Sequence record: MK327935.1
From: Escherichia phage vB_EcoM_G2494
Strand: one strand, 5' to 3'
Length of the DNA: 64,000 nt
The notes under the pieces are model-generated. The model was not told the DNA's origin. It made no database searches and saw only the letters and a list, made by a program, of their open reading frames with translations. The translations under genes and the position numbers were made by a program. Position 1 is the stretch's first letter. Every line of letters starts with the position of its first letter. Positions 3,067 through 57,133 of the stretch are shown one piece after another.

Positions 3067-3692
3067 AGAATTTTAAGGAAACTGGATAGACCTGATAATG
3101 AATATACACCAGATTCCCCGCATTCGCACTTGATCGGTACTGCCAGCGTGATTTGATTTCTTGTTAGCTCGTCGATCACTTCTTCCACTTTATCCGTGGT
3201 AAGCATATCCAGCACGCGGTCAAAGTCCTGTGCGTTCAGGTCGTCTATATTGAATTGCTGATCGCCGATCACGATATATTCGATACATGCAATTACCATC
3301 TGCATAATATCAACATCTTCTGTAAACTTAGGTTGACGAAATTTGATTTTTACTTGCCCTAAGTCCAGAATATACGGTTCAACTTCTGGTATCTGTGTGC
3401 GTGAAACATCAAGAGAATATACTTTCTCTTTATTGCATACACCACATACCCAAGTAGCATCAATTTTCATCTTATTGAGGCTGTGACACCATAAGAGAAG
3501 AAAAATATATTCTGCTTCGCATTTCTCTAGCTCTAATGCATTGATCCCCGTACATTCATGTATGATCTCTATAACAACCTCTGACAGCTTGCCAGTCTCT
3601 TTTGCTGCTACCAGTTTTTGAAATTCGCCGAAGGTGAAAGCACGGGCGTGTATCAACTTTTCGCCTAATTGGATCTTGAAAAAGTATTGCAT
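3063..3692 (-). CDS. 26: baseplate hub subunit gp26
   Basis: 209 aa, overlaps gp25 start, synteny with T4 26-25. Confidence 0.75.
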   Translation of the reverse strand: MQYFFKIQLGEKLIHARAFTFGEFQKLVAAKETGKLSEVVIEIIHECTGINALELEKCEAEYIFLLLWCHSLNKMKIDATWVCGVCNKEKVYSLDVSRTQIPEVEPYILDLGQVKIKFRQPKFTEDVDIMQMVIACIEYIVIGDQQFNIDDLNAQDFDRVLDMLTTDKVEEVIDELTRNQITLAVPIKCECGESGVYSLSGLSSFLKIL

Positions 3693-3734
3693 AATAAAAC
3701 ACCCTTTATAAACACATAGAATTATTTAGTATTT

Positions 3735-3742
3735 TATAAATA
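3735..3742 (+). promoter_or_regulatory. T4-type late promoter TATAAATA upstream of gene 51
   Basis: exact TATAAATA 21 nt upstream of ATG at 3763. Confidence 0.6.
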
Positions 3743-3762
3743 CCCGAAAGGGGGATTATACC

Positions 3763-4533
3763 ATGAATATTATCCGAATAAAACTACCGGAAGGTGTGCA
3801 GAGATTTAAACCATTCACGGTAAAAGATTATAGAGATTTCCTTCTGGTGTCAACTGAAATTAAGATGAATCCAGAAGAAGAACAAACGATTCTGGATGAG
3901 CTATTAGAAGAAATATATCCAGAAGTAGATCCGGCATTTCGTGAATATATTTTCCTGAATGTCTTTACTAGTTCAATTGGTAAAACAAAGATACCGCTTT
4001 GTTTTACTTGCCCGACTTGCAACAAAGAAAGAAAAATGTTGCTTAACTTACAGGTTGAAGCACTAAAACCAATCGTTCTAGAGGCCGCAGGGCTTAAAAT
4101 AACTTTCCGGTATGTTAAACCATCAACCGACTATGCAAAAACGTTTCTGGATGCGATAGAGCGTGTATCTGATGGTGTTAATGATTATCTATGGACTGAA
4201 TTACCGGAAGAAGTTAGAGAACAGGTTATAGATTCAATCTCATTTGCTGAATTTGAAGAAGTTGTTAAGCAGATGCACACAATCAAGATCGAACAAAAGA
4301 TATCTTGTTGTGAAAGTCATGACCTGAAATACATAGGTCTTCTTCCATTATTCAAATTGTTGTTGAATCCAGATGAGTTATTCATCTTTTATCGAATAAA
4401 CCATCTATTGGCAAAATCAAATTATTCTATCAGTGATCTTATGGATATGTTACCGATTGAGAGAAACATTGCACTGACACTGGTCGAGAAAGACGTAAAA
4501 GAGGCAAATAATGCAAAGAACGGGGTTTCCTAA
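3763..4533 (+). CDS. 51: baseplate hub assembly protein gp51
   Basis: 256 aa, divergent from 26 as in T4; CxxC pair FTCPTCNKE. Confidence 0.7.
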   Translation: MNIIRIKLPEGVQRFKPFTVKDYRDFLLVSTEIKMNPEEEQTILDELLEEIYPEVDPAFREYIFLNVFTSSIGKTKIPLCFTCPTCNKERKMLLNLQVEALKPIVLEAAGLKITFRYVKPSTDYAKTFLDAIERVSDGVNDYLWTELPEEVREQVIDSISFAEFEEVVKQMHTIKIEQKISCCESHDLKYIGLLPLFKLLLNPDELFIFYRINHLLAKSNYSISDLMDMLPIERNIALTLVEKDVKEANNAKNGVS

Positions 4534-26953: not shown

Positions 26954-27852
26954 TAAAAGTCTCCGTAGTTAACCTGAAAACATTCTACACCAATTGAGCG
27001 GTACATGTCAACCACTTGATCACGGTCATCTACTGCCAACACAACATGATAACGCGGTGCAATTTCAGAGAAGAAAATCTCTTTCTTCACTTCATGATCA
27101 GGACGACGATCATTAGTTTCACGTTGAAAGTGATCGCTAGGTTCAATACCCTGTTCACGCAACCATTGCAGAGTATCTTCTTCGCAAACATCCTCACGCC
27201 CTGAGCATGTAATGATACGATAACCATTATCACGATACAGTTTAAGCATTTCGATCACTTGCGGACGCGGTTTATCTTCTTTGACCTTTGTCCAGTCAAA
27301 CGGATGACGACCGCCCTTATCCGCTAATGTTCCATCAATATCAAAGATCACTGCCTTCGGCAGCATGGTATTCGGTTTGTATACTTCTTGACCCATATAT
27401 TCCTGCATCAGATAAAATTGGTTACGCAAATGAGAAAGTGGAATTGCTTTCTCGCCTCGATAGAAATTACGTTTCTTTAGTGTCTCAAATGATTCATTGA
27501 ACACTTGTTCAGTATACACCGCGTTAAATTCTTTTGCAAGTTCTTTGTAGAATACACGATGTTTTTCTTTCAGGTTAGTATCAGAGATAATGATACTTAA
27601 TCCGCGTGATAGAGTCTCACGAGCAATCATTCTCTGAATAGACTCTACCAGCTTTTCTTTTTCCTTAGTATACTTGTATTTCAAATGTGAGTCAACACCA
27701 AACAACATAAGACGAAGATCATCACGATTCACATTACGATAATTACTAAACCGGTTACATGTTTCCATAGCCCATGTAGTTTTACCAGACCTAGAACAAC
27801 CAACGGTTAAAATCACTTCACATTTCGGCATTATTTCTCCTTCGGTTTGCAC
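26953..27852 (-). CDS. pseT: polynucleotide 5'-kinase / 3'-phosphatase
   Basis: Walker A GCSRSGKTT, RDD motif, HAD motif DIDGTLA; 299 aa (T4 PseT 301). Confidence 0.85.
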   Translation of the reverse strand: MQTEGEIMPKCEVILTVGCSRSGKTTWAMETCNRFSNYRNVNRDDLRLMLFGVDSHLKYKYTKEKEKLVESIQRMIARETLSRGLSIIISDTNLKEKHRVFYKELAKEFNAVYTEQVFNESFETLKKRNFYRGEKAIPLSHLRNQFYLMQEYMGQEVYKPNTMLPKAVIFDIDGTLADKGGRHPFDWTKVKEDKPRPQVIEMLKLYRDNGYRIITCSGREDVCEEDTLQWLREQGIEPSDHFQRETNDRRPDHEVKKEIFFSEIAPRYHVVLAVDDRDQVVDMYRSIGVECFQVNYGDF

Positions 27853-28286
27853 CGTTCCTCATTAAGTTCTTTTCGATAATAACACATGATCAACTTACTT
27901 TCAAGTGTATATCTCTTAATATCCGCAAGCCAGACTCTGAATTTTTGGGAGTCCTCCCACGACATAGAAACTCTAGGTTTACCGTCTATTGTATCCACTT
28001 TCAGGTCAATGTCAACTTTTTCTATTGGTGCTGGTAGTTGAGGATGTAATTTCGGTTCCTGTGAATACTGGTCCATTGTACACGAAGAAAGAGCAAATAC
28101 AATAGGCACAGCGAAGACATGGATTATGGCGGTCTGAAAATTCTTATGTGCTTTCTTAAACATCCGGTGTATCACGAAAATTGAAAACACCATCAGGATA
28201 ATAATAATGCTTGCCCCTATCCCCAGATAATCAACCAGATTAAAATTGCTTATCTGCTCTTGCGTAGGCAATATTTCTATGCTCAT
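27831..28286 (-). CDS. putative outer-membrane spanin-like lipoprotein (o-spanin position)
   Basis: hydrophobic segment with lipobox LSSC; start ATGA-coupled to i-spanin stop with AAGGAGG RBS; alternative internal start at 28163. Confidence 0.4.
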   Translation of the reverse strand: MSIEILPTQEQISNFNLVDYLGIGASIIIILMVFSIFVIHRMFKKAHKNFQTAIIHVFAVPIVFALSSCTMDQYSQEPKLHPQLPAPIEKVDIDLKVDTIDGKPRVSMSWEDSQKFRVWLADIKRYTLESKLIMCYYRKELNEERCKPKEK

Positions 28287-28606
28287 TTAGTAGCCTCCTT
28301 TAATTCTTCGGTAAACTCCTTAAATGAATCATTAAGCTGTTTCTCTACCAACTTGGGTTTTTGTGCTACTACATAGCCTCGTGTAGCGTCTTTCATTGCT
28401 TTGTTTTGTTCTTCTGCAAACTTAGTTCTTATTCCGTACATCTCCTTTTGTAGTGAGTCTACGACCTTCATCTTTTCATCGGTCTTTTTCTTATACTCTG
28501 TAAATTCCCGATTCAGTCGATCTACCTCCTTTTTATTTTCCCACCACATATTGCCACCTACCCCTAGCAACACAGAGATGATAACAATGTATATCAGCTT
28601 TGACAT
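28283..28606 (-). CDS. putative inner-membrane spanin (Rz-like)
   Basis: N-terminal TM LIYIVIISVLLGVGG then coiled-coil; ORF track start 28657 over-extends into terminator hairpin. Confidence 0.5.
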   Translation of the reverse strand: MSKLIYIVIISVLLGVGGNMWWENKKEVDRLNREFTEYKKKTDEKMKVVDSLQKEMYGIRTKFAEEQNKAMKDATRGYVVAQKPKLVEKQLNDSFKEFTEELKEATK

Positions 28607-28650
28607 ATTACCCCCAACGACAAAAGGCGGGGAACTAGCCCCGCTTATTA

Positions 28651-29820
28651 TTACCAATCAATCTTATCAGCCGGAATCAGTTTCTTATAATTCCGTAGAT
28701 AGTAAGTTTTCATTGAATCCAGAATACGGTCATAATCAAGACCATCAAATGCAATCATCAGACACATGAAAATATATGCTTGTGCATCACCATGTTTACG
28801 TGATTCGATAGTCGCATTTGATGCATATGTCTTTCTGTCTTCTCCCGCGTGTGCGTTATAAAATTCTGTTGCTGTAGTGAAGGCATTGCGAAGAATAGAC
28901 CTGAATGCTTCCTCGAATAACTCGATTCGTTCCAGTGCTTCCGGTTCGCCTTCATATGCAGCACGCAAATCATCGGTTTCGCTTTCTACGACATAGTAGA
29001 TCAGGTTATTAGGAAACATCGATGTGTTTTTAATGTTATGCACACCAATATACCATTCACTCTTCACTTTGAACATTTGACCGTCTTTAGTGCGTGCAAC
29101 AATTCCTTCGATACCTTCTGCGGTCCGAACTTCATCAAGAATATTGCTAAAATGCGCTGAATCAACCTGTAACGCATTTACCAGATGAGGACGTAGGATT
29201 GCGTCAGCAAATAGCATTTGATGCGGTACGTACTCTCCTGTGACGTTATGGCGTACATTCAGAAGTGTTAGCGACGGTTCAGAATATTCTACAACAATTC
29301 GGTTGCTGGGTGCTGTATATTCAAAGTTGAAAGTATAATCAGACCCAATATCAGCAATCTTAGCGCGTAGATCCGCATACTTCTCTGAATACAGAAGACC
29401 GTTTGCTCTCTCTGCCTGGCTTGAGTACAAGGCCGCTTTAGACTTCAACTGAACATAGCCGTTATCAATGTAGGTGCTTACTAGACTACCGTCCATTTTG
29501 TCCATGACCATTTCCACATCTTCCGGCTTAAAGCGAGCGCGATCATTCTCACCCAAATTAAAAAACTTCTCCATAGGACGAGATGCGATGCGGACCGGAC
29601 GACCTTTATCGTCAATTTCAAACATGATCCCGCGACACTCTAACGCATCTGGTTTATTCCACATTTCCGGTTTGCTCAAGTACAGATAGCTAAAAATGCG
29701 CATACGGGTTTGCATCGCCGTAATTTCATCTTTGTAATAGAACGTATCAGATCCGTCACACAGTGCCATCAGATTTTTGAACAATGCTAAAACTTTTTTG
29801 TTGTTTTCTTTTGTTGACAT
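28651..29820 (-). CDS. rnlA: RNA ligase 1
   Basis: KxDG adenylation motif DKMDGSL; ALECRGIMFE and RIASRPMEKFFNL match T4 Rnl1; start may be an internal Met (overlap with denA). Confidence 0.8.
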   Translation of the reverse strand: MSTKENNKKVLALFKNLMALCDGSDTFYYKDEITAMQTRMRIFSYLYLSKPEMWNKPDALECRGIMFEIDDKGRPVRIASRPMEKFFNLGENDRARFKPEDVEMVMDKMDGSLVSTYIDNGYVQLKSKAALYSSQAERANGLLYSEKYADLRAKIADIGSDYTFNFEYTAPSNRIVVEYSEPSLTLLNVRHNVTGEYVPHQMLFADAILRPHLVNALQVDSAHFSNILDEVRTAEGIEGIVARTKDGQMFKVKSEWYIGVHNIKNTSMFPNNLIYYVVESETDDLRAAYEGEPEALERIELFEEAFRSILRNAFTTATEFYNAHAGEDRKTYASNATIESRKHGDAQAYIFMCLMIAFDGLDYDRILDSMKTYYLRNYKKLIPADKIDW

Positions 29821-49150: not shown

Positions 49151-49196
49151 TTCTATAAATACTCGGAACTATAACTAATTTTTTTGAGGTTACTTT

Positions 49197-50754: not shown

Positions 50755-53535
50755 ATGGCAGATTTACAGAGAATCCAATTTAAAAGAACAAGTACGGCAG
50801 GTCGCAAGCCGGATGCGAATATTCTAACTCCGGGTGAACTTGCTATTAACCTAGCGGATCGAGAACTATATACAAAAGATGACAGCAATAATGTAATTAC
50901 TTTGGGACACTTTCGCGGTGAGTTGCCATCTGATGCAAATTTAGATAATTATGGACCTACTGGTAAATTTACTGGCGTTTGGTCTAAATCAACTTCAACA
51001 AATGCGCAGCCAGCAAATAAATTCCCAGAAGAGAATGCTGTAGGTGTATTAGAAGTATTTGTGGCTGGTCAATTTGCTGGCACTCAGCGTTATACTGTTC
51101 GGTCTGGTAACGTTTATATCCGTTCTTTGTCTGCGAAATGGAATGGCGTAGATGGTCCATGGGGTCCGTGGCGCAATATTCAAACTGGCACACGTCCACT
51201 ATCAACTACACTAGACTTGAATACTTTAGGTGATGCTTCTCATTTTGGGTTATGGCGAAATAGTTCAAGTTCCATTGCATCATTTTCTCGAAATTACCCA
51301 GAAGAAGGTGGTCTCGCGCAAGGTCTTTTAGAAATTTATGAAGGTGGTAACTATTCTCGCACGCAACGTTATACTACCCGAATGGGTGTTGTATATGTTC
51401 GTTGTCTTGCTGGTGCATGGGATCCAGAAGCTCCGAATTGGGGACCGTGGCAACAAGTAGGTATGGTTACTCCCAACACATTCTATGACGGGGATCTTAA
51501 TAATTTTCGTTCTCCTGGCTTATATAATATTTTAGGCACTGATGCCGTTATTAACCGTCCAGTTGCAGAAGGTGTTCCGGTTGAGATGACCGGATTGCTT
51601 GAGGTTAAACAGCGTGCTTCCGGTGGCGCTATTTTCCAACGTTTCACTACCGCAGGAACGGGATCTACTACCCGTGGTCGTGTTTTTGAACGTGCAATGA
51701 CAAATAATATCTGGGGAAATTGGCATGAAGTATATACATCTTATTCTCTGCCAATTACTTTGGGTATGGGTGGTATTAAAACTCAATTAGCGGAGCTAGA
51801 TTGGCAAACATTTGATTTTGTTCCTGGTAGTATGTTTAGCGTTCCTTTGAACAAAATAAAGAACATGCCAGCAAATATGGATTGGGGTGCGATTGACGGA
51901 AACTTGGTTATGTTTTCTGTCGGTCCTAGCGAACACACTAGCACAGGGCGTACTGTTCAGGTTTGGCGTGGTACTGTATCCCAGACAAACTACCGTTATT
52001 TTGTCGTTCGTGTGTTCGGTAATTCTGGAAATAGAACTTGTACAGTTCGCCGTGTTGTTCTTGAAGACGGATCACATACTTGGACTGCTAAACAAGATTT
52101 TAATGGTGCTGTCAACTTTGGTGGTTCGACAACTTTTAAGTCCACTACAACTTTTAACACAGAAGTTAAATTCCGTTCATCCAATGCATTTAAAATGTAT
52201 GGCGGTAATTTTGGCACAATTTTCCGTAATGATGGTGAAAGTCTTTATATTCTTTCCACCGACGAAAATGATCAAGATGGAAACTTTAATACAAATAGAC
52301 CTTTCCGCTATCAATTAAAAACTGGCGATGTTACTTTGGGTGGCACTAGCGGTGCTAACGCTTTAGTATTAAAAGGCGGTTCTCTTGCTGCTACCTTTAG
52401 CGGTGATGTTAATTTAAGTAAAGGTACGCTGACGTTTGAAGCGGGTGGTAAGCAATCACGCGATTATTTCCGGTTTAATCATTGGGGTGATAGCAATAAC
52501 GCTCGTGATAACATTATTCAGTTAGAAGATAGTAAAGGCGCTCATTTTTCCACTGAACGTACTTTAGCGACTGGTGCAATTAAAACTAAATTCTTTGGTG
52601 AAGTTGAATCAACTGGTCGATTGACTATTAAACGTCCGGGTGGTGCTATTGTATTATCGACTACAGCCAGCAACGCTTTGCATATTCGCGGTGACGTAGA
52701 CGGGAATGGTAACTGGTATATTGGTAAAGGTGGTGCTGATAATTCGCTAGCATTTTATAGCTATGCTACTCAGGCGGCAGTACATATAACAAACAATGGT
52801 GAGATTGCGTTAAACCCGCAAAATACCTTAATGGTTAACGTTAACCGCGATCGTATGTATATCAATGGTGCAAGTTGGGTTGCCAGACAACCAGGTGATT
52901 GGGGCAACCAATGGCGAGTAGAAGCTCCATTATTCGTTGATCATGGTTATGTTGGTCAAGATAGTTATTATCCTATTCTTAAAGCAAGAAGCGTTATAAC
53001 CAATCAAGGATATAGCACCGCTGTTGACTTTGGTATGCGTCGTATTCCATCACAGTGGGGGCAAGCAATCATTCGTGTCGGATCCACGGAGGCTTCTCCT
53101 GATGCTGGACACCCACAAGCTGTGTTTGAATTCCATCATGATGGGTTCTTTTATACACCAGGAAATGGTAGCTTTAGCGATGTGTATATTCGTTCTGACT
53201 CCCGTCTTAAGATTAATAAAGAAGAGTTAGAAAACGGAGCACTTGAAAAAGTATGCCGTCTGAAAGTTTATACTTACGATAAAGTTAAGTCTATTAAAGA
53301 TCGTAGTGTGATTAAACGTGAAGCTGGTATTATTGCTCAGGATCTTGAAAAAGAATTGCCGGAAGCTGTATCTAAAGTTGAAGTTGATGGATCTGATGTT
53401 CTGACAATTTCTAACTCGGCAGTGAATGCTCTTTTAATTAAGGCTATTCAGGAAATGAGTGAAGAAATTAAAGAATTGAAAACTCCTTTCTTTACTAAAA
53501 TTGCTCGCAAAATTAGTAAATATTTTAAATTCTAA
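50755..53535 (+). CDS. 37: long tail fibre distal subunit gp37 with C-terminal intramolecular chaperone domain
   Basis: N-terminus IQFKRTSTAGRKPDANILTPGELAINL matches gp37; last ~113 aa SDSRLK...GIIAQDLEKELPEAV...LLIKAIQEM resemble the S74 self-cleaving chaperone domain. Confidence 0.8.
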   Translation: MADLQRIQFKRTSTAGRKPDANILTPGELAINLADRELYTKDDSNNVITLGHFRGELPSDANLDNYGPTGKFTGVWSKSTSTNAQPANKFPEENAVGVLEVFVAGQFAGTQRYTVRSGNVYIRSLSAKWNGVDGPWGPWRNIQTGTRPLSTTLDLNTLGDASHFGLWRNSSSSIASFSRNYPEEGGLAQGLLEIYEGGNYSRTQRYTTRMGVVYVRCLAGAWDPEAPNWGPWQQVGMVTPNTFYDGDLNNFRSPGLYNILGTDAVINRPVAEGVPVEMTGLLEVKQRASGGAIFQRFTTAGTGSTTRGRVFERAMTNNIWGNWHEVYTSYSLPITLGMGGIKTQLAELDWQTFDFVPGSMFSVPLNKIKNMPANMDWGAIDGNLVMFSVGPSEHTSTGRTVQVWRGTVSQTNYRYFVVRVFGNSGNRTCTVRRVVLEDGSHTWTAKQDFNGAVNFGGSTTFKSTTTFNTEVKFRSSNAFKMYGGNFGTIFRNDGESLYILSTDENDQDGNFNTNRPFRYQLKTGDVTLGGTSGANALVLKGGSLAATFSGDVNLSKGTLTFEAGGKQSRDYFRFNHWGDSNNARDNIIQLEDSKGAHFSTERTLATGAIKTKFFGEVESTGRLTIKRPGGAIVLSTTASNALHIRGDVDGNGNWYIGKGGADNSLAFYSYATQAAVHITNNGEIALNPQNTLMVNVNRDRMYINGASWVARQPGDWGNQWRVEAPLFVDHGYVGQDSYYPILKARSVITNQGYSTAVDFGMRRIPSQWGQAIIRVGSTEASPDAGHPQAVFEFHHDGFFYTPGNGSFSDVYIRSDSRLKINKEELENGALEKVCRLKVYTYDKVKSIKDRSVIKREAGIIAQDLEKELPEAVSKVEVDGSDVLTISNSAVNALLIKAIQEMSEEIKELKTPFFTKIARKISKYFKF

Positions 53536-53571
53536 CAACAAGGGGGCGTTGCCCCCTTTGGAGTATAAATT

Positions 53572-54372
53572 ATGGCAGTAGTTGGTGTTCCTGGTTGGAT
53601 TGGAAGTTCAGCCGCAAATGAAACAGGACAACGATGGATGAGTCAAGCGGCTGGTCAATTAAGATTGGGTGTTCCTTGCTGGATGAGTCAATTTGCAGGT
53701 CGCTCGCGAGAAATTATTCATACTGTAGGAGCAAACCACAATTTTAATGGTCAGTGGTTCCGTGATAGATGCTTTGAAGCTGGCGGTGCACCTATTGTAT
53801 TCAATATTGTTGGTGATATCGTTTCTTATTCTAAAGATGTACCGCTTTTCTTTATGTATGGTGACACTCCTAACGAATACGTTGTCCTTAATATTCATGG
53901 TGGTGTCCATATGTGGGGTCGAGGTGGTAATGGTGGATACACTCACTCAGGTGGAGATGGTAACGGTACACAAGGCGGTCATGTTATTCAAAATGATATC
54001 GGTGGACGGCTTCGTATTTGGAACTACGGTGTTATAGCTGCTGGCGGTGGTGGCGGTGGTGGTATTGCATATCGTCCACACTCAGGGGCAAACTGGCAAG
54101 ATATCGGTGGCGGTGGCGGTCGACCTTTCGGTGGTGCTGGCGGTGGCGGTTATTCCGGTGGTGCTGCTTCTTATGAAGGTCCGGGTGGTGGTTACAACTA
54201 TGGTAACGCACACTCCGGCGCGGGTGGTAATGCTGGCGCTGCTGGTCAGAATGCATGGTCTGATGGCGGTAAAGTTCTTAAAGTTGGTGTTGGTGGTGCT
54301 TCTGGTCATGCCGTGTTTGGATCTTCTCCAACTTGGGGCGCTGTAGGGACAATTTATGGACCTTACATTTAA
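53572..54372 (+). CDS. 38: gp38 receptor-recognising adhesin (T2-type, glycine-rich motifs)
   Basis: N-terminus [45 protein letters not shown]; several GGGGGG motifs separating variable segments. Confidence 0.8.
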
Positions 54373-54431
54373 CCGTTAAAAAAGAATTAAGGAAAAATCC
54401 CAGGGAAGGGAACTACTAAGGAGAAACGGCT

Positions 54432-54671
54432 ATGGTCTATAATATCGTCATTGGTGCTTTGTCTAATTTCGGAATGAAATTATTGTCAAAGTTAATTAGT
54501 GAAAAGATGCTCACTAAAATTTTCTTCTATTGCGCTCGTCGTCTTGCGGCTTATACCAATACGCCAATTGATGATCGTTTTGTGGAAGAACTTTATAAGG
54601 AGTTTAATAAAGATCAGTCAGAAGATAGTAACGAGCAAGATAAACCTAGTGATAGTCAACTACCTAAATAA
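54432..54671 (+). CDS. hypothetical protein (79 aa) between adhesin and holin
   Basis: strong RBS AAGGAG; amphipathic N-terminus, acidic C-terminus. Confidence 0.5.
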   Translation: MVYNIVIGALSNFGMKLLSKLISEKMLTKIFFYCARRLAAYTNTPIDDRFVEELYKEFNKDQSEDSNEQDKPSDSQLPK

Positions 54672-54704
54672 GAGTACACTGTCATAGTTATCTTAGGGCA
54701 TTAT

Positions 54705-55361
54705 ATGCAAGTTTCTGAAAAAGGGAAAGACTTTGCTATCTCAAATGTCCTGCGCGCTATTTTCACAACTAAAAGCACGGAGTTGCTCGTACTTCGTGTT
54801 TTTGCTGCCGTCGTGTTGTCCATATTAGCATTTGTCGTTTATAGTAAAAACGAGTTATTTGCGCTTTATAAAGAGACTCGTTATGAGACTTATGCTCACA
54901 TTCTCCAGGTAGAGAAAGACCGCAATTTTGATAATGCAGCACAGGAGCAGTTACAGATAGTTCATGTGTCGGCTGATGCCGATTTTTCTGCTGTTTTTAG
55001 TTTTCGTCCGAAAAACCTAAACTATTTTGTTGATTTGGTGGCATATGAAGGAAAGCTACCTCACACAATCGATGAAAAAAATTTAGGCGGATTCCCTATC
55101 AATAAAACGAGTGAAGAATATCGTAGGCATCTTTTAGGTAAATCATATTTTACCGATAAAGATTTCCAGTATATTCCATCAAGAGAAAAGAAATTAGAGA
55201 ATATCGATATAGGGTTTATGTATTCTTGCCCTATATTCAATCTCGATAATGTCTATTCTGGTAGTATCGCCATTGCATGGAAGAATAAACCGGATATTGA
55301 CATTGAGAATTTAGATACTCTTTGCAATCAATCTGCCAGAATCCTCGGAAGGATTAGATAA
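54705..55361 (+). CDS. t: holin t
   Basis: 218 aa; LQIVHVSADADFSAVFSFRPKNLNYFVDLVAYEGKLP and YSCPIFNLDN match T4 holin. Confidence 0.9.
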   Translation: MQVSEKGKDFAISNVLRAIFTTKSTELLVLRVFAAVVLSILAFVVYSKNELFALYKETRYETYAHILQVEKDRNFDNAAQEQLQIVHVSADADFSAVFSFRPKNLNYFVDLVAYEGKLPHTIDEKNLGGFPINKTSEEYRRHLLGKSYFTDKDFQYIPSREKKLENIDIGFMYSCPIFNLDNVYSGSIAIAWKNKPDIDIENLDTLCNQSARILGRIR

Positions 55362-55365
55362 CTTA

Positions 55366-55399
55366 AAGGGGAAGCCTTTCGGCCTCCCCTTCTTTTTAT
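55366..55399. terminator. bidirectional rho-independent terminator
   Basis: long GC-rich stem AGGGGAAGCC/GGCCTCCCCT followed by CTTTTTATT; between convergent t and 55396 gene. Confidence 0.65.
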
Positions 55400-55644
55400 T
55401 GGCGCATAGAAGCCCCTGAATCACATTTTGACGCTGTATGATGAAAACAGGTAGCGTACCAGTCATCGGCTTGTTTGTCTTCGTCAGAAAACGCGTAATT
55501 GCGTTGTATGCCGTTTTCTACTTTGACCAGTGCAATAGCTGTTTCTGGAAGATCAATCAATCGGACAAAATCACCATCTTCCCACTCTACACGAGCAATA
55601 TCATAGCCCATCTCAAAGTATACAATCGCTTGTTCTAATTTCAT
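55396..55644 (-). CDS. hypothetical protein (82 aa)
   Basis: ORF. Confidence 0.5.
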   Translation of the reverse strand: MKLEQAIVYFEMGYDIARVEWEDGDFVRLIDLPETAIALVKVENGIQRNYAFSDEDKQADDWYATCFHHTASKCDSGASMRQ

Positions 55645-55970
55645 TCTGGAAACTTCCCGTAAACATTCTCTGCCAGCTTACGTGCATCTTTTACAATATC
55701 TTTCATGTAATGACTATAATTTTTAGCTAGATCAATGATACAATCAACAAAGAAGTAATAGCGTCGCAGTGCTACCAGCTCAACATCTTCAAGATGACCA
55801 TTTTCTCCAATCGCTGAAATATGTTTAAATTCCTTTCGGATCGCGTCCATCGCTACATTAACTTCTTTTATAATATCTTTCGTATTATATGCACCTCGAC
55901 TAATCAAAATTTTGGTTAGGTCTTCTGCTTTTTCGTGAAAGTTGTCAATTTCAAACTCGATCATAATCAC
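55641..55970 (-). CDS. hypothetical protein (109 aa), paralog of 56079-56411
   Basis: shared C-terminal ...ENVYGKFPE / ...ENIFGKF. Confidence 0.5.
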   Translation of the reverse strand: MIMIEFEIDNFHEKAEDLTKILISRGAYNTKDIIKEVNVAMDAIRKEFKHISAIGENGHLEDVELVALRRYYFFVDCIIDLAKNYSHYMKDIVKDARKLAENVYGKFPE

Positions 55971-56078
55971 CTCTCATAGTTTCACGCTGTTGTTTCAACA
56001 TTTTTTCGTGGTTTGCTAATTCTATACCTTGTAATAGCATAACCAGTGCAATTTTCAATGATTCATCATCTTTCATAA

Positions 56079-56411
56079 TCAAAATTTACCGAAAATATTC
56101 TCTGTCATAATTCTTGCTTCGTCGATTATTTTCGTCATGTTCATGGTGTAGTTATGATCATTTAGTGCCTTAATGACAACGAGCAAGGAATCTAAAAACA
56201 CTCGATACCGTGTATATTCTACGCTATTTGTGAATACCGATGTTTTCTCTACTTTATCGATCAGATAGCCTAAAGCCGATAGCGCCTCGTTTACTTCCCT
56301 TGTTACTTTATCGGCGCTAAACAACACCGGATAAAGACGCGGTGTGATTAACCGCGCTGCCTCTTTCAATTCGGTCGCTTTCCATGATTCATATTTGTCA
56401 TAATTAAACAT
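56079..56411 (-). CDS. hypothetical protein (110 aa), paralog of 55641-55970
   Basis: as above. Confidence 0.5.
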   Translation of the reverse strand: MFNYDKYESWKATELKEAARLITPRLYPVLFSADKVTREVNEALSALGYLIDKVEKTSVFTNSVEYTRYRVFLDSLLVVIKALNDHNYTMNMTKIIDEARIMTENIFGKF

Positions 56412-56423
56412 TGTATAATGTCC

Positions 56424-56756
56424 TTACAGATGAAAACCTGTTACAATCACCGCATCGATCATACCGCTAGGAATAAACGGTTCACCCTCTTTTATTTCAA
56501 CTTTGAATTGATGCCATTTCGCTAATACTTCTTCCGGTACACCCAGCGATTCGGCGTCTGCTTTAGTTTCATCCATAATCCAACTAGGCTGCATGAGAGC
56601 ATAGTTTACATAGTCCATTTCTGGGGTCATGTCATCAATGTTAATATATTTGCAGTTGACGCGTTTCAGAATTTCAAATTCTTTATTGTCAACCTGTACC
56701 ATGTATAATTCAGTAGTTTCTGGAATCAGTTCCCACACAATCAGTACATTTTTCAT
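56424..56756 (-). CDS. hypothetical protein (110 aa)
   Basis: ORF. Confidence 0.5.
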   Translation of the reverse strand: MKNVLIVWELIPETTELYMVQVDNKEFEILKRVNCKYINIDDMTPEMDYVNYALMQPSWIMDETKADAESLGVPEEVLAKWHQFKVEIKEGEPFIPSGMIDAVIVTGFHL

Positions 56757-56764
56757 AGTTCACC

Positions 56765-57133
56765 TCACTTAACAAAGATTTTCTTTAATGCTTTCAGGAT
56801 CGTTGCTTCCGGCGCTTCTTCCGGTGGAGGAAGCAATTCTACCACTTCCTCTTCCAACTCGATATAGTCTACCAGATATTCTACATAGAATGCAAGTGCT
56901 TCCATGAAATTAGATGCTACATCCGATTCACCACACGCGCCTACATGCATTGTATAAACATCACTGCGATCAAGTTTGTGAATACTCCCCAGATAGTTCC
57001 GGTTATACCAGACTTCCCACACTTTCAGCTTTCCGGTTTTGGTTGATGTTTTATAATCGGTTTCGTAATGATGCAATTGACGTTGCAAATCATTGATAAT
57101 AACACATTTTTCGTAATTGTTTTGAATTTCCAT
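56765..57133 (-). CDS. hypothetical protein (122 aa)
   Basis: ORF. Confidence 0.5.
   Translation of the reverse strand: MEIQNNYEKCVIINDLQRQLHHYETDYKTSTKTGKLKVWEVWYNRNYLGSIHKLDRSDVYTMHVGACGESDVASNFMEALAFYVEYLVDYIELEEEVVELLPPPEEAPEATILKALKKIFVK

Follow-up and report, generated by a model that had tools for sequence, protein, structure and literature searches.

Among described systems, the closest to the gene analysed here is found in Pseudoalteromonas phage PM2, a corticovirus that has a membrane but no tail and whose host is marine. According to the cited summaries of PM2 lysis, the cytoplasmic membrane is made permeable by P17 (gp k), a protein described as a member of the holin class (PMC6356626; PMC9502842), and the subsequent disruption of the outer membrane requires, or is aided by, P18 (gp l, gene XVIII) (PMC6356626; PMC9502842, citing Krupovic et al., 2007, Mol Microbiol 64:1635). 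P18 is the only member of its family that has been studied. Homologues of P18 are encoded by PaP3, Felix 01, RB49, P-SSM4, S-PM2, and P-SSM2 (Krupovic and Bamford, 2007; PMC1950889). In a survey of spanins, RB49, Phi1, and JSE were placed in the T4 spanin family, and Felix O1 and 7-11 were listed with overlapped spanins; PM2, PaP3, P-SSM2, P-SSM4, and S-PM2 were counted among the 'spanin-less' phages (Kongari et al., PMC6139136). Felix O1 gp79 has been listed as a holin candidate (Whichard et al.).

The window examined here is the whole stretch of 64,000 nt taken from Escherichia phage vB_EcoM_G2494 (MK327935.1). Megablast placed it in Krischvirus, the RB49-like 'pseudo-T-even' phages, with vB_EcoM_G5211 as the best match (identity of 100% in positions 54300-54760 and of 99.2% in an alignment of 8.4 kb that contains 62 mismatches and 2 gaps). 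The first-pass annotation had proposed to look for orthologs in T2-like phages. The backbone of the window is RB49-like and not T2-like; only the module made up of the gp37 tip and gp38 is of the T2/T6 type. Upstream of gp38 lies gp37 (926 aa), which carries a C-terminal Peptidase_S74 chaperone domain. Because most Krischvirus records align to the window from ∼54376 on, i.e. just past the gp38 stop codon, the T2/T6-type gp37-tip/gp38 module is best read as an insertion into the Krischvirus backbone, and the 79-aa ORF that follows it (Table 1) as part of that backbone. The distal fibre module (50755-54372) is mosaic, with an S74-domain gp37 and a T2/T6-type gp38 set in a Krischvirus backbone, and it looks like a host-range cassette swap. 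In RB49, gp37 is found directly before the ortholog of the ORF, and a gp38-like gene (RB49p079) is located 100 kb away. In the closest GenBank record, MK327947, gp38 (154105-154904; 3274-4073 of L002) is frameshifted relative to the window into two CDS of 37 aa and 245 aa; the corresponding 266-aa ORF, with its Gp38_N domain, is intact in the window. The window thus represents a near relative of that record or a corrected form of it, and the two sequences are not identical.

Table 1. Coordinates of the 79-aa ORF, its predicted parts, and the lysis and fibre genes discussed in the text (positions in the 64,000-nt window).
Feature	Position	Strand	Basis and remarks
o-spanin, PseT.2 homolog	27831..28163	-	tblastn with T4 PseT.2, E 5e-20; ORF; lipobox ALSSC; start inferred at MFKKAHK...
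i-spanin, PseT.3 homolog	28283..28606	-	tblastn with T4 PseT.3, E 2e-10; ORF; start inferred at MSKLIY...
gp38 adhesin, T2/T6 type, 266 aa	53572..54372	+	PF05268, E 1e-65; PF21721; Gp38_N
Shine-Dalgarno sequence AAGGAG	54418..54423	+	8 nt 5' of the ATG of the 79-aa ORF; read from the sequence
P18/gp l-family gene, 79 aa	54432..54671	+	ATG start, TAA stop; ortholog of RB49p252/'Dc5', identical to G5211_00249
Predicted helix 1, residues 2-20	54435..54491	+	AF2, block pLDDT 66-67; hydropathy; column statistics
Predicted helix 2, residues 24-41	54501..54554	+	AF2 H24-41; conserved E24, F31, F32, A35
Family signature T-x-T-x-x-D-D (T42 N T44 P I D47 D48)	54555..54575	+	Column statistics, 148 non-redundant members
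Acidic low-complexity C-terminal tail, residues 61-79	54612..54668	+	6 D/E against 2 K/R; pLDDT 51-54; alignments A1-A3
Holin t, 218 aa	54705..55361	+	PF11031, E 2e-61; phrog_860 (holin); downstream neighbour, presumed functional partner
Stem-loop and U-run after t	55366..55401	+	Fold -17.5 kcal/mol, z -2.2; likely transcript end

The protein encoded by the ORF has the sequence MVYNIVIGALSNFGMKLLSKLISEKMLTKIFFYCARRLAAYTNTPIDDRFVEELYKEFNKDQSEDSNEQDKPSDSQLPK. Several features recorded in the first-pass annotation were recovered: the ORF itself with its Shine-Dalgarno sequence at 8 nt before the ATG, and its placement between the gp38 adhesin and holin t, both of which were identified by their Pfam matches. 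Holin t begins 33 nt past the end of the ORF. The slot had been described as vacant in T4, and it is indeed empty there, because T4 gene 38 ends 20 nt before t. Among 60 matching phage records, 59 carry copies of the ORF with at least 95% DNA identity and the remaining one has 90-95%; 58 of the 60 span at least 80% of the query, and the ORF is found in all 58 near-full-length Krischvirus matches. Compared with three divergent Krischvirus-like metagenomic contigs (L023, L024, and L025; 60-75% amino-acid identity), the dN/dS of the ORF was 0.15-0.23 with pS of 0.5-0.8, which points to purifying selection; the values for holin T in the same three contigs were 0.04-0.09. Residues 16-60 of the protein are near-invariant in the Krischvirus-like group, and variation is found in helix 1 and the acidic tail. 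We concluded from these comparisons that the ORF is a real conserved gene and not a chance reading frame; the conservation in related genomes, on which the earlier proposal had been made to depend, was thus found. RB49 and the window each contain one gene of the P18-type family, and in the Krischvirus and Felix O1-like records examined the gene is deposited as 'hypothetical protein' throughout. The shorter start at Met15, annotated for 'Dc5' in RB49, was considered and rejected: the first residues (1-14) are conserved across the whole family, so the full-length start is taken as correct, and the Shine-Dalgarno sequence precedes the upstream start.

RB49, L023, L024, and L025 all have the ORF immediately before t. 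The genes upstream of this pair differ among the three contigs and consist of a 524-aa Gp10_C-type fibre protein, a gp38 adhesin, or an S74-type gp37 with three ∼100-aa ORFs. As judged from this gene order, the unit that is co-inherited is the ORF plus t, not a fibre gene plus the ORF. An RNA hairpin was detected after gp37 (53541-53557) and another structure after t (Table 1). No hairpin comparable to these two was found between gp38, the ORF, and t, and the three genes are therefore most simply regarded as one late transcript. The T4 late-promoter consensus TATAAATA was not found upstream of the ORF or t; the nearest plus-strand copy is at 49154, and the counts were not above chance. Scans for sigma-70 promoters and terminators added nothing specific. 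The first opposite-strand gene past t (82 aa, 55396-55644, minus strand) has a counterpart in L024 and L025 with a weak Tad2-like Pfam match (PF11195), and the product of this counterpart is possibly an anti-defence protein. A Phage_T4_Y16F family protein is among the neighbours in the minus-strand region 55396-57133.

The AF2 model of the protein (pLDDT 69, moderate confidence) consists of three helices at residues 2-20, 24-41, and 45-65, followed by a disordered tail. Helix 1 is hydrophobic with a narrow polar face formed by K16 and K20, and it varies across the family. The amphipathic character that had been ascribed to the N-terminal half was borne out, as this half is hydrophobic/amphipathic with a best 19-residue Kyte-Doolittle mean of 1.31 (1.1-2.2 across the family); the usual hydropathy threshold for a transmembrane domain (TMD) is 1.6, so a transmembrane helix is doubtful in the window protein. 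In an alignment of 148 non-redundant members, the conserved positions of helix 2 include E24 (69%), F32 (74%, the second residue of an FF pair), and A35 (68%), and in the signature that follows T42 is found at 94%, T44 at 79%, D47 at 99%, and D48 at 92%. The window protein has E24, the FF pair, T42, T44, D47, and D48. The acidic C-terminus had also been read correctly (last 19 residues; Table 1); the tail shows little conservation and is missing in most family members (alignments A1-A3). Neither a signal peptide nor a lipobox was found in the protein, whose sole cysteine (C34) is inside helix 2 and whose net charge is near-neutral (-1). When Foldseek was used to compare the AF2 model with BFVD, the matches were limited to an ortholog from phage ECD7 and non-significant small helical proteins; the search was uninformative because the fold is too simple.

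Next, we asked to which family the protein belongs. At E ≤ 0.05 its only Pfam or PHROG matches are to PHROGs of unknown function, so there is no match to a chaperone family. A Pfam scan gave noise only (TPR_LAA1_C and DUF1287, E > 0.05), the model set used being older than PF26925, and sequence searches of NCBIfam, PADLOC, and PDB gave no match. The informative match was to PHROG 402 (function unknown) with E 5.2e-20, and PM2 gp l (51 aa) itself matches the same PHROG with E 8.2e-14. When profile A3 of the family was compared with PM2 gp l, hhalign gave a probability of 91% (E 1e-6, 42 columns) and hmmsearch a score of 25.1 bits; the identity of PM2 gp l to the A3 family consensus is 21% in 42 aligned columns. 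The precomputed Pfam entry PF26925 'Phage_PM2_Gpl' is assigned to homologs including those 89-92% identical to the ORF product, and word-indexed searches yielded 15 and then 73 homologs of 33-104 aa, with PF26925 precomputed on each one. A HMMER search with a 29-sequence profile against 1.84 billion cluster representatives returned 301 clusters at E ≤ 1e-3, and among the best 150 of these 301 representatives 149 are stand-alone proteins of 43-94 aa. One apparent exception, P0182 (4303 aa, 10 'matches'), is a repetitive adhesin-like protein that shares only the peptide ...TADPTDDEF... and was discarded as spurious. By tblastn, homologs were found in 401 phage records, in groups that include Krischvirus, Felixounavirus, Kolesnikvirus, Vibrio lentus phages, Crifsvirus, Moazamivirus 7-11, and Lahexavirus; the narrower alignment A4 led to 6 viral and 18 metagenomic loci. 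On these sequence grounds we assign the ORF product to the PM2 P18 (gp l) family. The kinship of the RB49 ortholog to P18 is already published, as RB49 was named among the carriers of P18 homologues in 2007 (PMC1950889), and Pfam now includes the family; annotations in the databases lag behind.

The two proteins share more than the profile match. PM2 gp l and the ORF product are each small, helical, and stand-alone. In both, a conserved Glu follows helix 1 and the signature (T/S)-x-(T/N)-x-x-D-(D/N) is present, and both are encoded by late genes that adjoin a single-TMD holin-type gene. However, PM2 gp l has only 51 aa, without most of helix 1 and without the acidic tail, and its signature is degenerate (S-x-N-x-x-D-N, in the form S-E-N-T-L-D-N). 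The gene order is also different: in PM2 the partner comes first (k then l), whereas here the ORF precedes t. Moreover, PM2 is without spanins (PMC6139136), whereas the window phage has PseT.3 and PseT.2 homologs. Two other phages provide further comparisons. Felix O1 gp78 (ORF78) belongs to the same family with 44-47% identity to the ORF product, and PaP3 orf10 does so with 31-39 bits. In both, the family gene is followed by one for a small N-TMD coiled-coil protein (gp79 in Felix O1 and orf11 in PaP3), just as t comes after the ORF in the window. They differ in that gp78 and orf10 are 63-64 aa without an acidic tail, and in that gp79 and orf11 have no sequence relation to T.

Endolysins of four enzyme families precede P18-family genes in other genomes. 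The gene is found directly after a GH108 endolysin in Vibrio phage 1.038.O (L004) and in L018, L020, and L038, and directly after a GH24 endolysin in a Shewanella baltica genome contig (L011) and a near-identical contig (L012). It directly follows a Peptidase_M15_3 endolysin in L021 and L049, with an unrelated 117-aa ORF upstream in L048, and a Peptidase_M15_4 endolysin in L017. The L017 enzyme (3606-3980), which immediately precedes the family gene, is very similar to the Krischvirus endolysin (RB49p102 in RB49). In L013 the gene comes after a 1112-aa protein with a lysozyme domain. In several phages the P18-type gene thereby holds the slot right after the endolysin, the usual place of spanin genes. 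A small N-terminal-TMD coiled-coil protein adjoins the family gene in PM2 (gp k), PaP3 (orf11), Ounavirinae (gp79/phrog_4038), L019, and L021/L048/L049. No sequence similarity was detected among the partners compared (PM2 gp k, PaP3 orf11, Felix O1 gp79, those of L019 and L021, and T), and only the architecture is common to them. In PaP3, orf10 (phrog_22224 and phrog_402) overlaps orf11, which encodes 82 aa with an N-terminal TMD and a coiled coil (L033 9662-10085); this pair is located within the structural module and is a candidate lysis pair for Bruynoghevirus. In a marine metagenomic lineage (L039 930-1166 and L040 502-738), the P18-family gene is followed by a gene for a 78-aa lipoprotein with the signal MKNIFIILPLVALLAAC, the mature part of which is helical and rich in Lys and Ala; it could be a spanin-type partner. 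In 7-11-like phages, Crifsvirus, and Lahexavirus the homolog is within the structural module without a lysis-type neighbour, and some metagenomic loci show no informative neighbour of the homolog.

The remaining lysis genes of the window phage were then located. The homologs of T4 PseT.3 and PseT.2 are both on the minus strand (Table 1; spanin region 27831-28657). The PseT.3 homolog has a TMD only when its start is set at MSKLIY... (window position 28606). In RB49 the annotated pseT.3 starts downstream at MWWENKK and is therefore without the TMD (RB49 spanin region 128606-129321). The longest ORF for the PseT.2 homolog (151 aa) has an extra hydrophobic N-terminal extension ahead of the lipobox. 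Both spanin starts look mis-set in the RB49 annotation. RB49 also has an rI gene, and its endolysin is of the M15 type. Instead of a T4 E-type lysozyme, Krischvirus has a T5-type L-Ala-D-Glu peptidase as its endolysin (Peptidase_M15_4-like; RB49 54719-55108, L030 4719-5108). The spanins (lambda Rz/Rz1 and T4 PseT.3/PseT.2) would act at the same lysis step as the ORF product if the PM2 function holds for it, but they share no sequence similarity with it. By its features the ORF product is not a spanin: it lacks a lipobox and a signal peptide, its N-terminus does not reach the hydrophobicity of a normal TMD, and there is no long coiled coil of the periplasmic kind.

Taken together, the best explanation is that the ORF encodes a P18-type small helical accessory lysis protein that is made with holin T, to which we give a probability of about 0.6. 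The involvement in lysis, one of the two suggestions made in the first-pass annotation, is supported by the homology to PM2 P18, the invariant linkage to t, and the family-wide adjacency to endolysins and holin-like genes. In the proposed mechanism, a P18-family protein of ∼60-80 aa with three helices would work in host lysis alongside the holin. In late infection the ORF product would probably build up in the cytoplasm or at the inner surface of the membrane, a location suggested by the lack of a signal peptide or lipobox and by the borderline hydrophobicity of the N-terminal helix. Like a soluble endolysin, it would reach the envelope only once holin T triggers, and it would then help to complete envelope breakdown (in PM2, the step at the outer membrane), acting beside the PseT.3/PseT.2 spanins and not in their place. 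Since the phage has spanins, a role at the outer membrane may be redundant or conditional (e.g. in cation-stiffened envelopes), or the protein may have another holin-linked job. Weighing against a P18-like role, the function would be carried over from one distant homolog, PM2 gp l, with its degenerate signature; lysis neighbours are missing in the 7-11-like, Crifsvirus, and Lahexavirus loci; and the net charge of -1 is unlike that of cationic membrane-disrupting peptides. Known membrane-disrupting peptides are cationic, and disruptin (gp28 of phage phiKT), a small peptide that replaces spanins, is strongly so. Disruptin resembles the ORF product in being a small amphipathic helical protein without export signals, for which access to the outer membrane has been proposed only after holin action, but the ORF product differs from it in its net charge and in its acidic signature and tail.

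The first-pass annotation had offered a fibre assembly factor or a lysis regulator as alternatives. As for a regulator, the published role of the family prototype P18 is that of an effector needed to disrupt the outer membrane and not of a timing regulator. The main rival to the preferred reading would make the protein a cofactor or regulator of the holin that binds T at its cytoplasmic N-terminal domain or TMD and tunes its triggering, either as a co-holin that promotes hole formation or as a cytoplasmic antiholin cofactor like T4 RIII, and we consider this unlikely. The immediate and unvarying adjacency to t would fit such a role, as would the fact that, in at least five other lineages, family members are paired with single-TMD type-II proteins that are unrelated. 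T4 RIII, which binds the N-terminus of T, is close to the ORF product in size (82 and 79 aa) and helicity, is likewise without an export signal, and would meet the same partner; rIII in T4 is not linked to t, whereas the ORF is. A tblastn search of the window and of ∼99.6% of the RB49 genome with T4 RIII gave no significant match, and beside gene 31 the slot syntenic with rIII holds an unrelated 54-aa ORF. The missing RIII is weak evidence, because T4 RI likewise found no homolog in the window or in RB49, where an rI is annotated, and RIII may be too divergent to detect. The ORF product had no blastp match to T4 RI, RI.1, RI.-1, or RIII. Furthermore, RIII delays lysis, whereas P18 is needed to complete it: the P18 phenotype, as given in the cited PM2 summaries, is a failed last step of lysis and not a change in timing. 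Many homologs also follow an endolysin without an adjoining single-TMD partner.

That last arrangement bears on another alternative, in which the protein itself permeabilises the membrane as an atypical or pinholin-like holin that is redundant with T. In several uncultured phages and prophages the homolog is the sole small hydrophobic gene by the endolysin, with no other TMD protein or lipoprotein within ∼2.5 kb, and in some subfamilies the hydropathy of the N-terminal helix reaches 1.9-2.2. Against this, the best hydropathy window of the protein studied here stays at 1.31 and its helix contains two Lys, the ∼14 residues that precede the conserved Glu of PM2 gp l are too few for a TMD, and the permeabilising role in PM2 is assigned to P17 and not to P18 in the cited summaries. 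No Pfam or PHROG holin family matched the ORF product, and Krischvirus already has T; we regard a holin function of its own as very improbable. We are just as reluctant to accept a role in the assembly of tail fibres or of the virion, or as a minor structural component. The gene does follow tail-fibre genes in Krischvirus and Ounavirinae, and it is within structural modules in 7-11-like, Crifsvirus, Lahexavirus, and PaP3 phages. But the fibre module upstream has been replaced while the ORF-t pair stays, many homologs are next to endolysins far from fibre genes, and there is neither a Pfam or PHROG match to fibre or chaperone families nor strict co-inheritance with a fibre gene, so the fibre half of the earlier suggestion is not supported. 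Felix O1 gp78 is not among the proteins found by virion proteomics, in which small proteins are easily missed.

The accessory lysis role preferred here has a wider, more tentative extension. Possibly, although we would not regard it as the likelier case, a P18-type protein and an adjacent small type-II membrane protein (a single N-terminal TMD) form a widespread mobile two-gene lysis module, whose members would be PM2 k-l, PaP3 orf10-orf11, Ounavirinae gp78-gp79, at least two uncultured lineages, and Krischvirus with T. If this were true, the module would be a third device for envelope disruption or holin control beside spanins and disruptins, and in the RB49-like phages it would back up the spanins in cation-rich conditions or replace the undetected RIII in controlling T. 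An apt label for the gene is 'PM2 P18/gp l-like lysis protein', in place of hypothetical or fibre-associated protein. RB49-like phages grow on E. coli K-12 and have a full T4-type lysis set (T, RI, endolysin, and spanins), which makes them a tractable system for the contribution of P18-type proteins. Such a contribution would bear on how the ∼13% of phages that are 'spanin-less', including PM2, PaP3, and the cyanomyophages reported with P18 homologs, breach the outer membrane.
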